Part shown: positions 1,999-37,433 of the stretch, piece after piece | How positions within the stretch are numbered: the stretch's first letter is position 1 | How the letters are laid out: the number at the start of each line of letters is the position of its first letter | IMG/VR virus record: IMGVR_UViG_3300025073_000021 | Location: 1-37,433 of that record | Origin: a virus | Taxonomy: Duplodnaviria; Caudoviricetes | Length of the DNA stretch: 37,433 nt | Direction: 5' to 3' (one strand) | Position numbers and translations under genes: made by a program | Notes under the pieces: generated by a model | Databases searched by the model: none | What the model was told of the DNA's origin: nothing | Seen by the model: only the letters and a program-made list of their open reading frames with translations

Positions 1999-3924
1999 AT
2001 GATAGAAGATTTAATTTTACAACAAGCTCTCAAAGAGTATCAGATAGCTTTGAAATATAGAGCACAGCGTATTTCTTCGTGGCATAAAAACGAAGATTTG
2101 TATTTACAGAGAAAAAAGAAAGAAATACAAGGTCGTCATAACATACTCTTGGGAGAAATGCAGGGATTTGTTGACACCTTGCTTTCAAAGATTGATGACG
2201 CACCGACAATCAAATTCTTGCCTACAGATGAAGCAGACACTCGCAAGGCTGATAAAGTTAGCAAGGCATGGGAGAAAGACAGTTCTATCACACAAGGCGA
2301 CTGGGCGTATAAAGACCTATTAGGTAAAAAACAATGCGGACTTTACGGTCGCACTGGATATAAATACTTCGCTGAAAGCGATCCTAAGTATAACTCAAAT
2401 CTCGTGTTGATTGATGTCTACGATCTCCTTGTTGACCCATTAGCAGGTGGTGAAGATATCGAGAAAGGAAAGTTCTGTGGACATGACAACATTTTCAAAT
2501 CAGTATATGAAATCGAGCAGAGTTCTTTGTATGACTCAAGACAGGTTTTACTTGCTAAATTAGGTCTTTCACGAGAAGTAACTGAAAAGAATGATAACGA
2601 ACTCAATGAGAAGACTAACCGTGCTTCTATTTTAGGTTTAACACCTGACAAATATCAGAGTGAAGAAACAATGAAACTCTGTGAGTGGTATACGACATAC
2701 AAAGGTACTCGCTTCTTAGTGACATTTGACCACCGCAGTAAGCATTGGCTACGAGTTGAAAAACTGAAAGAAATCTTTACCACACCTGAATACGCTAACG
2801 ATGACCCACTCTATCCCTTAGACTCATGGGCTTCTAATCCTGACATGTTTGAATTTTGGACTCCTTCACCCGCTGACCAGGTGCGAGAAACGATCGAAGC
2901 CAAATCACTACTTATCTCTCAAGCATTCGACAACAGAATGTATAACAACTTTGGCATGAAAGCCTATGACGTAAACGCATTTGTTAATCCTGCGTTATTA
3001 GAACCTCGTTGGGCTGGGCTAGTACCTGTCAATGTGAAAGAAGGCAACTCACTACAAAACAGTATTTACGAGTTCAGATATCCAGCGTTAGGAGATACGC
3101 AAGTGCTATATAACATCTTAGACACTGAAAAGAGCAAAAACTCTGGTATTACGCCAGCAACACAAGGTCTAGCTGAAGAAGATAAGAAAGTTGGCGTAAT
3201 GGAGGGGGAATTGGCACAAGCTGCTGACCGCATGGGGCTGTTTAACAAGAGCTATGGTCGCTTCTGGGTGAAGATGGGTAAACGATATTTGAACGGCTTG
3301 AAAGAACATTTAAATGAAGACATGGCAGTGAAGATGATAGGGGAGAAAGGTATTAGTTGGGACAAGGTTTGTAAGCAAGATTTAAACGCTGAATTTGATA
3401 TTGAGATTATCGGTGCAAACGCTGAACTCTCATCTGATGCAAGATTAACAAAACAAAAACTCACTGTTCTCCAGGCACAGGTTCAGAACCCGAACTTCAA
3501 CCCTAAAACACGTGATAGAAAGATTTTAGAAATAGCAGGATTTGAAACAAACGAAATCAACGACCTTCTTGATACCGACAACTTGGCAAACAAAGAAGTC
3601 TCTTTGGAAGCAGCGGAAGAAAACCAAAAGATGCTCAAAAAAGATGTAGAACCTAATCGTAATGCTGATACGGCTCATGTAAGAAAGCATTTAGACTTTG
3701 TACGATCTAACGAACTTAAACCAGAAGTACATGCTCGCATTCTAGCTCACATGAAACTAGAGGTAGACATCGCACGCAAGAACATGGTTGAGAACCTAAC
3801 ATTTCAAAAAGCACAGATGGGCGTATTGCCAGAAATGGGGCAGTCAGAACTTGGTCAACCTATGGGGATGGAAGATTTACCAGATAGTAATTTAGAACCA
3901 CAAACACTTTTAAATAACGTCTAG
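1999..3924 (+). CDS. Portal protein (P22-like)
   Basis: 641 aa directly after terL; helical, with an SGITPATQG motif and a Q/M-rich C-terminal tail. Confidence 0.85.
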   Translation: MIEDLILQQALKEYQIALKYRAQRISSWHKNEDLYLQRKKKEIQGRHNILLGEMQGFVDTLLSKIDDAPTIKFLPTDEADTRKADKVSKAWEKDSSITQGDWAYKDLLGKKQCGLYGRTGYKYFAESDPKYNSNLVLIDVYDLLVDPLAGGEDIEKGKFCGHDNIFKSVYEIEQSSLYDSRQVLLAKLGLSREVTEKNDNELNEKTNRASILGLTPDKYQSEETMKLCEWYTTYKGTRFLVTFDHRSKHWLRVEKLKEIFTTPEYANDDPLYPLDSWASNPDMFEFWTPSPADQVRETIEAKSLLISQAFDNRMYNNFGMKAYDVNAFVNPALLEPRWAGLVPVNVKEGNSLQNSIYEFRYPALGDTQVLYNILDTEKSKNSGITPATQGLAEEDKKVGVMEGELAQAADRMGLFNKSYGRFWVKMGKRYLNGLKEHLNEDMAVKMIGEKGISWDKVCKQDLNAEFDIEIIGANAELSSDARLTKQKLTVLQAQVQNPNFNPKTRDRKILEIAGFETNEINDLLDTDNLANKEVSLEAAEENQKMLKKDVEPNRNADTAHVRKHLDFVRSNELKPEVHARILAHMKLEVDIARKNMVENLTFQKAQMGVLPEMGQSELGQPMGMEDLPDSNLEPQTLLNNV

Positions 3925-14691: not shown

Positions 14692-14850
14692 ATGGACTGC
14701 AAAGAACGCTACAAAGAATTTAGTATGGAAGGAGAATATATCGTAGACGATGAACTAGAGCATGATTGGATAATACATAATTTACAAGATTTTATTATTA
14801 AACAATGCCAATGGTGCAGAGTAACAAAAGATACATCGTATGGAGCCTGA
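14692..14850 (+). CDS. 52-aa Cys/His-containing protein (not in the ORF track)
   Basis: MDCKERYKEF...HDW...CQWCRVTKDTSYGA; fills the gap between two coupled genes. Confidence 0.55.
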   Translation: MDCKERYKEFSMEGEYIVDDELEHDWIIHNLQDFIIKQCQWCRVTKDTSYGA

Positions 14851-15130
14851 CGAAGAACACAAAAAATATTTTCATAATATGTCTCCAGAGACAAAAGAGG
14901 CTTTAGAATCTCTTAACAAACGTATGGATGTTATGGAAGAAAACCATAAGGAATTACGACAAGATGTAAAAGAGATAAAAGAAAATCATTTAGCTCATTT
15001 GCAATGTGGACAGAATGATTTAAAGATTGAAATGACCGCTCAAAGTACTAATTTAAAATGGATATTGATTATAGGTGGTTTTACTATCGTACAGGGTGCT
15101 GGAATATTAGTTGCTATTTTAACAAAATAA
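14840..15130 (+). CDS. Coiled coil with a C-terminal TM helix (XhlA/holin-like)
   Basis: Heptad region then WILIIGGFTIVQGAGILVAIL; located at the start of the lysis-position block. Confidence 0.6.
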   Translation: MEPDEEHKKYFHNMSPETKEALESLNKRMDVMEENHKELRQDVKEIKENHLAHLQCGQNDLKIEMTAQSTNLKWILIIGGFTIVQGAGILVAILTK

Positions 15131-15136
15131 TATATT

Positions 15137-15202
15137 GGAACTTCCCCCTCAATCGAGATACTTATCGATTGACACTCATATCATGGTTGGGTGGGAGGTT
15201 CT
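15137..15202 (+). ncRNA. Three-way-junction RNA leader of the GC-rich cassette
   Basis: Outer stem ggaacttccc/gggaggttct; inner hairpins tcaatcga/tcgattga and cactca/tgggtg. Confidence 0.5.
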
Positions 15203-15220
15203 AAACAATGGAGGGATAAG

Positions 15221-15295
15221 GTGAAAGAAGTGTTGGAGTACATCATGTTGCTCGTTACAGTGGCTCTCATCATCGCAGAGTTCTCACTCCTGTAG
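15221..15295 (+). CDS. 24-aa hydrophobic peptide, type I toxin-like (not in the ORF track)
   Basis: GGAGGG SD then GTG; translates as MKEVLEYIMLLVTVALIIAEFSLL. Confidence 0.55.
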   Translation: MKEVLEYIMLLVTVALIIAEFSLL

Positions 15296-15304
15296 GAGGG
15301 AAAC

Positions 15305-15556
15305 ATGAAGACCATGTGTGGGTGCGGACTTCGCATGAAGGACTACGGTGGTGTCGATGGTTTCGCCATCGAGGAGTGCGACTGGTGCTCGCAGAACGGT
15401 GGCGTGTACTGCAAGTCGCCCTACTGGGACACGAAACGGGACAAGGAGGATGACAAGCGTGTCCGACAGGGTATGGCGTACAAGGAAGCCATGAACAACG
15501 TGACCCCGCTCGAACGCACGAGACAGGGGAAGAAGAAGGGAAGGAGAGCCGCATGA
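15305..15556 (+). CDS. Small Cys-rich (Zn-ribbon-like) protein with a basic tail
   Basis: AGGAGGG SD 4 nt before ATG; CGC...CDWC...C; GC-rich codon usage. Confidence 0.7.
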   Translation: MKTMCGCGLRMKDYGGVDGFAIEECDWCSQNGGVYCKSPYWDTKRDKEDDKRVRQGMAYKEAMNNVTPLERTRQGKKKGRRAA

Positions 15557-15756
15557 GACTCGACGAGAAGTACGTTCAGCCGAAGCTGCTCTGCCCCACC
15601 TGCCGTGAGAAAACCGACCACGTCATCGACCACAAGACGCTCACCACTTCGGGAAGCCTCGTGCTGGCGTACTACACGTGCAAGACGTGTGGTAAGTCGC
15701 ACCAGGCGATCCTCGGAGAACTCCAGACCTTGTGTCAAGAGTTCAAAGCCGCCTAA
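15553..15756 (+). CDS. Small Zn-ribbon protein
   Basis: AAGGAGA SD, ATGA overlap with the upstream gene; CPTC...CKTC. Confidence 0.7.
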   Translation: MRLDEKYVQPKLLCPTCREKTDHVIDHKTLTTSGSLVLAYYTCKTCGKSHQAILGELQTLCQEFKAA

Positions 15757-15761
15757 TGCCA

Positions 15762-15783
15762 CCCACAGGGCATCTGCTGTGGG
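15762..15783 (+). other. Hairpin closing the GC-rich cassette
   Basis: cccacag/ctgtggg stem just after the last cassette stop codon; no U-tract. Confidence 0.5.
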
Positions 15784-15797
15784 GAAATCTATATATT

Positions 15798-16691
15798 ATG
15801 GAATACGGAACAGGCTTAGTGCCAGACATTTTAGACGAAAGGGATTACGAGTTAGACCATATCCTTATGGGTTCTCCTATTTTCGATTGGGAGAAAGGAT
15901 ATGACATCGAGGAAGAAATAGGTATGGAGATACCAACTAAAAGTCAGAATGGCTCTGGTTCATGTGTCGGACAGACATCAGCTACCTATATTTGGGTCAA
16001 GAATGTCGTTGAGGCTGTTCAGAAATATGGAAAATTAACAGAACAAACAAAACAATTTTTTAAAGAATACTACCAGATTTCTGCAAAGGCAGTCTACTCG
16101 CAGATACATCTTGAACAAGGTGGTGCATACTCACGAGACGCTATGATGTTGTGGAGAGACTGGGGTGCAGTACGAGAGAAAGAAGTGCCAAGCTACGATA
16201 ATGGCAATCCACCAAGTGAAGAGTTTATGCGAGGCACAGAATGGATGAATAAAACCTTATATCCTAAAACACTGCAGTCTTTTGAGGCAAGAATGCTCAG
16301 AGACAAGTCAATAGACGCTATTGCACAGGCAATACGAGATAATCACGGAATACATTTCGGAGTAAGAGGTGAGTGGAATAACACGTGGAAGAGTATGTTC
16401 CCTTTAGCACCTCAGAGTACGAATTTCTTTTACCATGCTCTCTACGCTGGTAAGGCGAATATGATAAACGGCAAGAAGTACATCGGTATTAAGAACAGCT
16501 GGGGAGACAATGTCGGACAGAAAGGTTGGCAATGGCTGTCTGAAGAGTGGTTTCCAGAGTATGTGATGAATCCGTGGGTAGCATTTGACCAAGCTAATTC
16601 AGGGCTACTAAAGTTCATAGATAAAAAAGGTAAACCACGTAAGCTCCCTGCTTATTGGATTAAATCAATAGCACATTTAATGTATGTCTAA
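15798..16691 (+). CDS. Papain-like cysteine peptidase (clan CA, C1-like) 1
   Basis: QNGSGSC (oxyanion Gln and catalytic Cys), YHAL (His), IKNSWG (Asn); propeptide-like GLVPD..DERD. Start placed at ATG 15798. Confidence 0.9.
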   Translation: MEYGTGLVPDILDERDYELDHILMGSPIFDWEKGYDIEEEIGMEIPTKSQNGSGSCVGQTSATYIWVKNVVEAVQKYGKLTEQTKQFFKEYYQISAKAVYSQIHLEQGGAYSRDAMMLWRDWGAVREKEVPSYDNGNPPSEEFMRGTEWMNKTLYPKTLQSFEARMLRDKSIDAIAQAIRDNHGIHFGVRGEWNNTWKSMFPLAPQSTNFFYHALYAGKANMINGKKYIGIKNSWGDNVGQKGWQWLSEEWFPEYVMNPWVAFDQANSGLLKFIDKKGKPRKLPAYWIKSIAHLMYV

Positions 16692-33638: not shown

Positions 33639-34427
33639 ATGTCAATAACAAATTCCAACGGAGTAAACGAAGAAAATTCTGACGCAGTCAATAGGTCTGA
33701 CGCAGTCAATTGGTCTAACGCAGTCAATTGGTCTAACGCAGTCAATTGGTCTAACGCAGTCAATAGGTCTGACGCAGTCAATGGGTCTGACGCAGTCAAT
33801 AGGTCTAATGCAGTCAATAGGTCTAACGCAGTCAATGGGTCTAACGCAGTCAATGGGTCTGACGCAGTCAATAGGTCTAATGCAGTCAATAGGTCTAACG
33901 CAGTCAATGAGTCTAACGCAGTCAATAGGTCTGACGCAGTCAATGAGTCTAACGCAGTCAATAGGTCTGACGCAGTCAATGGGTCTAACGCAGTCATAAA
34001 CTCTTATGGGGTATATAATTGTTTGTTTGTTGCAGATGAAAAAGGAGTAGCGTTTAAACTTTTCAAGACACAAGTAACCGGGGAGAGAATTGACGAGGTA
34101 AAGGCAGAATACAGAAACAAGCTCAAAAGTTGGAAACCGACATTCAATAATGGATTTGAATTATATTTGCAAAATGGCAATGAGTGGAAAAAAGTAAATG
34201 CGTCCCAAATATGTTCGACCCTTGAAGAATGGGACAAACCAGCTAAAGCGTGGAAAGGTATGCCACAAGATGCTATTGATTATCTGATGAGTTTGCCTGA
34301 ATGGGACGAAGCGACATTTACACAAATTACAGGACTTATACCAGCGAAAAAAGATGATGAAATAAAGAAAGCAATAAAACTCTTGCAAGAAAAAGGCAAA
34401 ATTAAAGACGGTAAAATAACAATCTAA
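33639..34427 (+). CDS. Hexapeptide-repeat (S-[DN]-A-V-N-x) beta-solenoid protein
   Basis: 17 full repeats plus one partial; C-terminal domain ending LPEWDEATFTQITG. Confidence 0.85.
   Translation: MSITNSNGVNEENSDAVNRSDAVNWSNAVNWSNAVNWSNAVNRSDAVNGSDAVNRSNAVNRSNAVNGSNAVNGSDAVNRSNAVNRSNAVNESNAVNRSDAVNESNAVNRSDAVNGSNAVINSYGVYNCLFVADEKGVAFKLFKTQVTGERIDEVKAEYRNKLKSWKPTFNNGFELYLQNGNEWKKVNASQICSTLEEWDKPAKAWKGMPQDAIDYLMSLPEWDEATFTQITGLIPAKKDDEIKKAIKLLQEKGKIKDGKITI
33678..34001 (+). repeat. 18-bp coding tandem repeat
   Basis: tct-[ag]a[ct]-gca-gtc-aat-(agg/tgg/ggg/gag), about 18 copies. Confidence 0.95.
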
Positions 34428-37306: not shown

Positions 37307-37433
37307 GCATTAGCCACGGTTCTCAAAAGGAATCGTGGCTTTTTTTATTTATATGGCTGAAACAAATCCCAACGGAGCTAATCAGTATCAGTTAGACCCG
37401 AGGCAGAAAATGTGTTGGGACTTTTACATAAAC
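37307..37433. repeat. Terminal direct repeat, copy 2
   Basis: Identical to bases 1-127. Confidence 0.95.

Follow-up and report, generated by a model that had tools for sequence, protein, structure and literature searches.

What might a short run of GC-rich, Shine-Dalgarno (SD)-led genes do in an AT-rich phage genome in which nearly all other genes begin differently? The window analysed here, 37,433 nucleotides in length, is a complete 37.4-kb phage genome with direct terminal repeats at 1-127 and 37307-37433. Profile searches found a terminase, a capsid protein, a YqaJ-type recombinase, a replication initiator and a DnaB-like helicase, and no integrase was seen among the 47 phage proteins scanned. 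The cassette (Table 1) lies between a hemolysin-family holin-like gene and two C1-type peptidases. An earlier note, made from the sequence alone, had placed it in a lysis-position block. The hemolysin-family PHROG match and the C1-peptidase matches agree with this, but none of these products is a proven endolysin: the upstream product may act as a holin, to judge from its position, the C1 peptidase at 15798-16691 is a putative lysis enzyme, and we infer "lysis block" as a plausible label for the surroundings. The stop codon of ORF3 overlaps an ATG that lies in the reading frame of the downstream peptidase (window 15755-15797; also in the related contig L002), and this ATG would permit a peptidase 14 aa longer via translational coupling. 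Far from the cassette, at 33678-33996, an 18-bp tandem repeat of 17.7 copies lies within a 262-aa ORF, and a 90% identical region occurs in G002.

Table 1. The cassette and its flanking genes, with positions in the window
Feature	Position	Strand	Basis
Upstream flank (outside the cassette): 96-aa holin-like protein, C-terminal hydrophobic segment, SD-less, AT-rich	14840..15130	+	phrog_1193 'hemolysin', E 1.6e-7
5′ leader: long outer stem (15135-15152 with 15187-15204), variable apical part	15135..15204	+	pairing, covariation, folding z-scores
SD of ORF1, GGAGGG	15210..15215	+	sequence; -9.8 kcal/mol
ORF1: 24-aa hydrophobic peptide, GTG start; variable slot	15221..15295	+	ORF list, comparison with relatives
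SD of ORF2, AGGAGGG	15294..15300	+	sequence; -10.7 kcal/mol
ORF2: 83 aa, CxC...CxxC zinc knuckle, GGxYxKSxxW motif, long helix, basic tail	15305..15556	+	alignment, AlphaFold2 pLDDT 81.6
SD of ORF3, AAGGAGA, inside the ORF2 end (ATGA overlap)	15541..15547	+	sequence; -8.1 kcal/mol
ORF3: 67 aa, CxxC...CxxC zinc ribbon	15553..15756	+	alignment; sub-threshold zinc-ribbon Pfam matches
3′ hairpin CCCACAG-N8-CTGTGGG, without U tract	15762..15783	+	folding versus shuffles
Downstream flank (outside the cassette): papain-like C1 peptidase, AT-rich, T-ATG start	15798..16691	+	PF03051, E 1.8e-5

Composition and start signals

How distinct is the cassette from its surroundings? The impression of a GC-rich island, first gained from hand counts, was borne out by a sliding-window scan: the best 550-nt window (start 15235) has a GC content of 0.573, the best one elsewhere reaches 0.462 and the genome mean is 0.381; nowhere outside the cassette does a run of 300-nt windows exceed 0.50. 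Codon usage departs from the rest of the phage as well, the GC3 of ORF1, ORF2 and ORF3 being 0.72, 0.76 and 0.79 as compared to 0.15-0.43 in the 51 other listed ORFs. Across phages, codon usage of the cassettes correlates with that of the remaining phage genes at r -0.17 and with that of three GC-rich chromosomal genes of the genome G003 at r 0.90, a value that is partly circular because these genes were chosen for high GC3; for the phage backbone and the ribosomal-protein genes of G003, r is 0.72.

The start signals are equally set apart, as the earlier note had claimed. When duplex energies with the anti-SD sequence ACCUCCUU were computed, all three cassette starts showed strong SD sites (energies in Table 1), whereas a single one of 46 other starts, picked by hand, reached -7 kcal/mol, namely that of the DnaB-like helicase (-8.0 kcal/mol). 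Conversely, T at position -1 is found at 45 of these 46 starts and at none of the three in the cassette. A recognisable promoter, too, had been reported missing, and this holds for the type scanned: sigma-70 promoter-like sites occur at chance level (two found, 2.0 expected; other promoter types lay outside the scan), none of them within the cassette, and the same scan found no U-tailed terminator there. Transcription of this promoterless cassette thus probably starts at the late promoter.

RNA elements and encoded proteins

Do the structured ends of the cassette matter? The leader of the window folds better than 200 of 200 shuffles (z -3.5), and the 5′ elements of four phages reach z -3.5 to -6.5. 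Their conserved part is the outer stem, with the core CCMCTCAA/TGGGTGGG: it pairs at 17 of 19 positions in the window, 16 of 19 in L005 and 18 of 19 in L016, compensatory changes included, while L002 carries a shorter stem variant. Conservation in relatives, on which the earlier note had made its reading depend, was thus found for this covarying stem in the window, L005 and L016. The three-way junction that the note had drawn at 15137-15202 did not survive: it makes up 45% of the ensemble in the window (-26.2 versus -26.5 kcal/mol for an unbranched rod), the branched fold drops to 0% in L005, 7% in L016 and 0% in L002, and only the outer stem covaries. Rfam holds no family for the leader, its three matches all falling far below the gathering score, and when about half of IMG/VR was searched with the leader pattern, only one of 120 loci had a cassette, the already-known L005. 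We rejected a leader stem on chromosomal cassettes: 11 matches in 10 of 240 genomes compare with five for a reversed control, none led a cassette except that of L016 itself, and three were antisense in dnaA-like genes. The leader is likely a processing or 5′-stabilising element.

At the other end, a hairpin does close the cassette as originally described, with a folding score that depends on the piece considered (z -3.0 when folded as 22 nt, z -0.8 within 51 nt). It is identical in L002 and replaced by different hairpins at the same position in L005, L016 and L034, and is likely a 3′ stabiliser. The 3′ hairpins of two phage and five chromosomal cassettes (L016, L034, L057, L059, L061, L062, L064) share a 9-nt loop, CT[GC]NNCAAA, which is absent from the window; three more matches occur elsewhere, and for five control loop patterns the number of matches was 0-6 per pattern. 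This hairpin is possibly a protein-binding site of an SD-led gene class. A viroid-like rod was dismissed, the coding part being no more structured than shuffles (z -0.39).

Among the encoded proteins, ORF2 and ORF3 are constant across relatives, and ORF1 is replaced by other ORFs or missing in three relatives with an intact 5′ end. ORF2 belongs to no Pfam or PHROG family. Its top matches are to ribosomal protein bL31 and weak: E 0.07 at the sequence level (one Thermus sequence in several forms), and E 1.3 or more with Foldseek, where ribosome entries fill most of the list. Like the bL31 zinc hairpin, ORF2 combines a CxCG knuckle, a beta-hairpin and a CxxC over ~30 residues; unlike bL31, it has no N-terminal IHP motif and no HPFYTG motif. 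At the profile level, membership in the bL31 family finds no support (hhalign probability about 4% [4.4%]; no Pfam fit, bL31 included, in 25 members), and bL31 mimicry was discarded (only PerR, Z 2.1, among 46 chains in VIA-align); we treat the likeness as a lead only. ORF3, by its sequence, is a generic zinc ribbon; atlas and Foldseek searches returned zinc-ribbon and small beta-fold matches, none at E<=0.001. From fold and charge, both products are predicted to bind nucleic acid or ribosomes. No export signal was evident by eye in the cassette proteins.

Relatives in phages and in ABY1-class genomes

Three other phage contigs (L002, L005, L016) carry the cassette at the same holin-like/peptidase junction, and in all three the GC content of the contig peaks there. 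In a fourth, L034, which breaks off at a contig end, ORF2, an ORF3-like gene and a hairpin stand ahead of a terminase-like gene (named by eye), away from any lysis block. L012 and L013 (100% identical) represent the phage of the window itself and were left out of the counts; the marginal ORF2 matches L007 and L015 were dropped, L015 sharing nothing with the window. Relatives were retrieved with cassette or neighbouring-gene queries, so that cassette-free ones are poorly sampled; joints skipping the cassette were absent from the contigs of four sequencing runs, whose coverage was too patchy for this to count as evidence. The earlier note had proposed to check whether related phages bear non-homologous cassettes of similar style behind the same leader. 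GC richness, SD sites and a conserved outer stem were indeed found, but ORF2 and ORF3 are homologous, and the ORF1 slot is replaced or missing.

Gene content varies around this core. A fourth Cys/Trp-rich ORF (49-52 aa, CxxC...CxHC), missing in the window, lies between ORF2 and ORF3 in L002 (3841-3999), L005 (5231-5383) and L016 (6245-6394). The L002 cassette also contains, at 2790-3590, an AT-rich HNH-type endonuclease gene (by eye), preceded by the leader stem, a 14-aa SD-led ORF and a second hairpin. In L005 (4990-5003), ORF2 apparently starts with ATC, 5 nt past GGAGGT, and no ATG, GTG or TTG fits the SD spacing.

Cassette proteins are 42-100% identical between phages, as against flanking peptidases and holin-like proteins of which only 1 of 12 pairs falls below E 1e-3. 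In 14 of 15 pairs of cassette genes pN is smaller than pS, which argues for purifying selection on the proteins. Moreover, with the exception of a single pair, pS ranges over 0.43-0.74, yet GC3 remains at 0.63-0.96 against a phage background of 36-40% GC; since GC3 is kept despite near-saturated synonymous change, the composition has been maintained and gives no sign of recent arrival. Between the window and L002, a block of 253 nt comprising ORF3 and the 3′ hairpin is 97.6% identical at an ORF2 identity of 45%, a pattern indicative of recent module exchange. Near-identical copies in a high-GC phage or plasmid, named in the earlier note as the mark of a simple transfer, did not turn up: tblastn of ORF2 against 50,697 phage records (E<=1) and a blastn search of 72,556 plasmids gave no match.

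Where else does the family occur? ORF2 profile matches were obtained in 10 of 240 genomes of the order of G003, in three of the 401 genomes sampled from its class and, among 401 from its phylum, in G003 alone, as well as in 1 of 26 genomes of the order of G222. The nine order matches besides G003 are chromosomal and occupy two fixed sites between housekeeping-type genes, which we take to be rfbB/cupin and tgt/UvrD. Their GC3 (0.41-0.67) exceeds that of their neighbours, and GGAGG or GAGG precedes the ATG in five of nine (by eye). The G222 homologue, SD-led and AT-rich (GC3 0.20), is identical to a protein listed by NCBI under Ca. Falkowbacteria. An ORF3-like gene adjoins ORF2 on the G426 chromosome, the only ORF3 match in the order that was examined further; 25 of the 26 genomes matched (out of 240) gave weak hits (E 1e-5 to 1e-3), mostly in frames of 150-200 aa, that are probably generic zinc ribbons. 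In a tree without starred support, four phage ORF2 copies group with 11 context-less proteins and L034 with the chromosomal copies. Apart from these 11 of 25 context-less homologues, ORF2 was found only in ABY1-class genomes and related phages.

An ABY1-class CPR bacterium is the likely host, as we infer from one binned contig and common signals. L016 lies in G003, a 1.1-Mb bin labelled Gammaproteobacteria. On contig C2 of this bin, uS5 (66585-67064) is followed by uL15 at 67070 with uL30 missing between them; as absence of uL30 is given as a CPR trait in the accessible text of PMC9297842, G003 has CPR features. Its ribosomal-protein genes have SD-less T-ATG starts, as in the phage. The bin (L029, L030) also holds two different 16S genes; that on C19 carries an altered tail, CTATCTCCT, differs in helix 45 from most of the order and is probably a contaminant. 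The earlier suggestion of a CPR host is thus supported indirectly, by shared signals and one binned relative, but a bin with two 16S genes makes the binning no proof.

Could such a host read SD-led genes? Of the 40 16S loci read, with three genomes entering the count twice, 39 keep the anti-SD sequence CACCTCCT, all but the second 16S gene of G003, and SD-like sites precede an EF-Tu-like gene of G222 and the phage DnaB-like gene; hence, the SD route appears usable in a CPR cell. As a point that would speak against its own reading, the earlier note had named host genes that routinely use SD sites: SD-led genes do exist in G003 and G222, yet as a minority class in a T-ATG, SD-poor background. 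GC3 of this class is 0.66-0.79 in GC-rich G003 examples versus 0.30 in G222. By its strong SD sites in the same kind of background and its chromosomal homology, the cassette may be counted as a member. On G222:C8, about 41 SD-led genes in 198 kb are not GC-rich, and many have a sigma-70 promoter (by eye). Many also have, 25-50 nt upstream of the ATG, a boxA-like TGTTCCTTGAC motif similar to some 16S leaders; it emerged from 33 SD-led G222 leaders, scores high in four of nine 16S leaders and partly captures -35 boxes. As a signal for the cassette we set this motif aside, for it did not exceed the background in SD genes of G003 (p 0.31) or in the leaders of chromosomal ORF2 copies and of the phages.

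Possible roles and known systems

What, then, is the cassette? Tentatively, and with a confidence that stays somewhat short of an even chance, we favour a conserved phage copy of an ABY1-class CPR chromosomal gene class that is transcribed late, trimmed and translated by CPR ribosomes via its SD sites. In bacteria with RNase J, processed mRNAs are stabilised by a 5′ stem, strong SD sites and a 3′ hairpin. RNase J is present in five of five and RNase III in four of five host genomes tested, and these enzymes together with the stabilising features at the cassette suggest a stable fragment of ~650 nt. The promoterless cassette would be read from the late promoter; the AU-rich holin end would be cut, with RNase J halting at the 5′ stem or RNase III cleaving within it, and the 3′ hairpin would block 3′ exonucleases, so that trimming would leave a stable mRNA between two hairpins. 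Strong SD sites and A/U-poor codons could keep this fragment ribosome-loaded and long-lived, thereby uncoupling its output from the T-ATG-started structural and lysis genes. Late in infection, the binding targets of the small zinc-finger, basic-tailed products might be nucleic acid, ribosomes or a host regulator, with phage ORF2 borrowing the role that its chromosomal homologue plays for the host. An RNA module cut from the late transcript had been one of two options in the earlier note; the covarying stem, the missing promoter and the host RNases fit it, though the cutting itself is a prediction. Against our explanation, a GC3 of 0.7-0.96 has no cause in CPR translation, ribosomal-protein genes preferring A/T-ending codons. 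Nor does the stability argument predict that the SD-led genes of G222, including its ORF2 homologue, are not GC-rich. The 11 context-less ORF2 homologues, which could lie on non-CPR DNA, count against it as well, as does a coding part that folds no better than its shuffles in the window.

Alternatively, the ribosomes may be those of another cell. A hairpin-capped mRNA or phage DNA would enter a larger, higher-GC partner cell and be translated there, steering the host's host; we consider this unlikely, while giving it real weight. A single cause would then account for the SD sites and for a codon bias that runs counter to that of CPR ribosomal-protein genes, a bias that this model explains better. 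Retention of the bias at the observed synonymous divergence in an AT-richer background would also be accounted for, as would the lineage-dependent GC3 of the SD-led class, which varies between G003 and G222 as if tracking different partners. The cassette proteins, for their part, have no evident export signal. According to the available text of PMC10633639, Saccharibacteria have an essential T4SS proposed to act on their host, and that of PMC10746230 describes actinobacterial spacers targeting some predicted Saccharibacteria phages; in the literature searched, the accessible parts of these two papers included, we found no paper showing mRNA transfer from a CPR bacterium to its host. Yet hosts keep a canonical anti-SD, which makes a foreign ribosome unnecessary, no partner is known for these genomes and the phage DNA offers no partner-usable promoter. 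The earlier idea of translation in the host's own host cell is accordingly not required, given CACCTCCT and an SD-led class in the hosts themselves, but retains its advantage on codon bias. Extended to the chromosomes, it would mean that ABY1-class CPR bacteria write a second gene class for the ribosomes of the parasitised cell and ship hairpin-capped mRNAs, a route captured by phages for zinc-finger effectors—a proposal that we likewise hold to be unlikely. If a partner cell does translate the cassette, parasites and their viruses would have a new means to control a host, and if true, a virus would act across two cell boundaries through a transferred mRNA.

The genes might instead be accessory hot-spot genes, their composition stemming from GC-biased conversion or steady inflow from an unsampled GC-rich pool, with ordinary hairpin ends and a promoter of an unscanned type. 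The module shuffling between the window and L002, the variable gene content (ORF1, the fourth Cys-rich ORF, the HNH gene) and the grouping of L034 ORF2 with chromosomal copies, albeit without starred support, are in line with this. However, this would not explain why each ORF has an SD site, why T is lost from position -1 and why the stem covaries and is conserved in sequence, and we regard it as distinctly unlikely. Very unlikely is a Bacteroidia-type timing switch, in which SD-led genes stay silent until the anti-SD is freed late and then drive lysis. The cassette does adjoin putative lysis genes in four phages, its ORF3 stop overlaps the in-frame peptidase ATG in the window and L002, and bS21 sequesters the anti-SD in Bacteroidia (accessible text of PMC7797042 and PMC13000453). 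But bS21 did not exceed the Pfam cut-off in five host genomes (two weak matches), and in L034 the genes are not near a lysis block. L005 and L016 lack the in-frame overlap, since a different small ORF comes next in both, and GC3 is unexplained.

Recent acquisition of a moron from a high-GC phage or plasmid, the other option of the earlier note, is suggested by the sharp compositional edges and already largely refuted: the copies share one site in four divergent phages, are deeply diverged with their composition retained, have homologues only in ABY1-class genomes and related phages and find no match in the phage and plasmid collections, leaving it a very slim chance. Equally improbable is a type I toxin–antitoxin or single-gene-lysis unit on the 24-aa peptide, which would suit the size and hydrophobicity of ORF1 and the structured leader but not the loss or replacement of ORF1 in relatives nor the lack of an Rfam antitoxin.

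How does the favoured explanation, an SD-led mRNA processed and read within the CPR cell, relate to known systems? RNase III sites of T7 yield processed phage mRNA segments, and a 5′ stem and SD act as stabilisers against RNase J. Like these segments, the cassette has a long stem where two genes of a polycistronic transcript meet, a strong SD downstream and a 3′ hairpin; unlike them, it also changes codon style and start-signal class, and its cleavage is a prediction from sequence. With phage morons of the HK97 gp15 type, as portrayed in the accessible text of PMC3594210, it shares the nature of an extra unit of deviant GC between conserved late genes, with bacterial chromosomal homologues, and like the moron-borne T3SS effectors described there it may depend on machinery of the host for which the phage has no genes. 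Unlike morons, however, it has neither its own promoter nor a U-tailed terminator in the sigma-70 scan, and it occupies one site in divergent phages while being better conserved than its flanks, cassette-free relatives being poorly sampled. Its GC lies above the backbone rather than ameliorating, its start signals are of another class, and the phage has no integrase among the 47 proteins.

Bacteroidia with an SD-led rpsU and bS21 phages (PMC7797042, PMC13000453 and PMC9723584, in their accessible parts) offer another parallel, namely an SD-poor genome, an intact anti-SD and an SD-led minority; in contrast, bS21 stays below the cut-off in the hosts tested here, and the SD-led class is larger and compositionally distinct. 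Close kin are the chromosomal SD-led genes of G003 and G222, small orphan genes in a T-ATG, SD-poor genome, with which the cassette has the ORF2 family, an ORF3-like neighbour and codon style in common, and some phage cassettes also the 3′ hairpin loop. The phage version departs from them in being polycistronic, with overlapping ORFs and a long leader stem, and from many G222 genes, which have a stand-alone sigma-70 promoter (by eye), in being promoterless. In the openly accessible main texts, our searches turned up no account of a second, SD-led class of genes, either in CPR bacteria or in their phages. What is new is a selected, phage-borne, promoterless version of this class with a shared family and a covarying leader. 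CPR genomes appear to use two translation-start systems, and the retention of family, signals and codon style in several phages shows this signature to be under selection and useful to the virus rather than a leftover of import. Set beside its chromosomal counterparts, the cassette—one predicted 650-nt RNA encoding two conserved proteins—is a compact object with which to test which cell translates the SD-led class.
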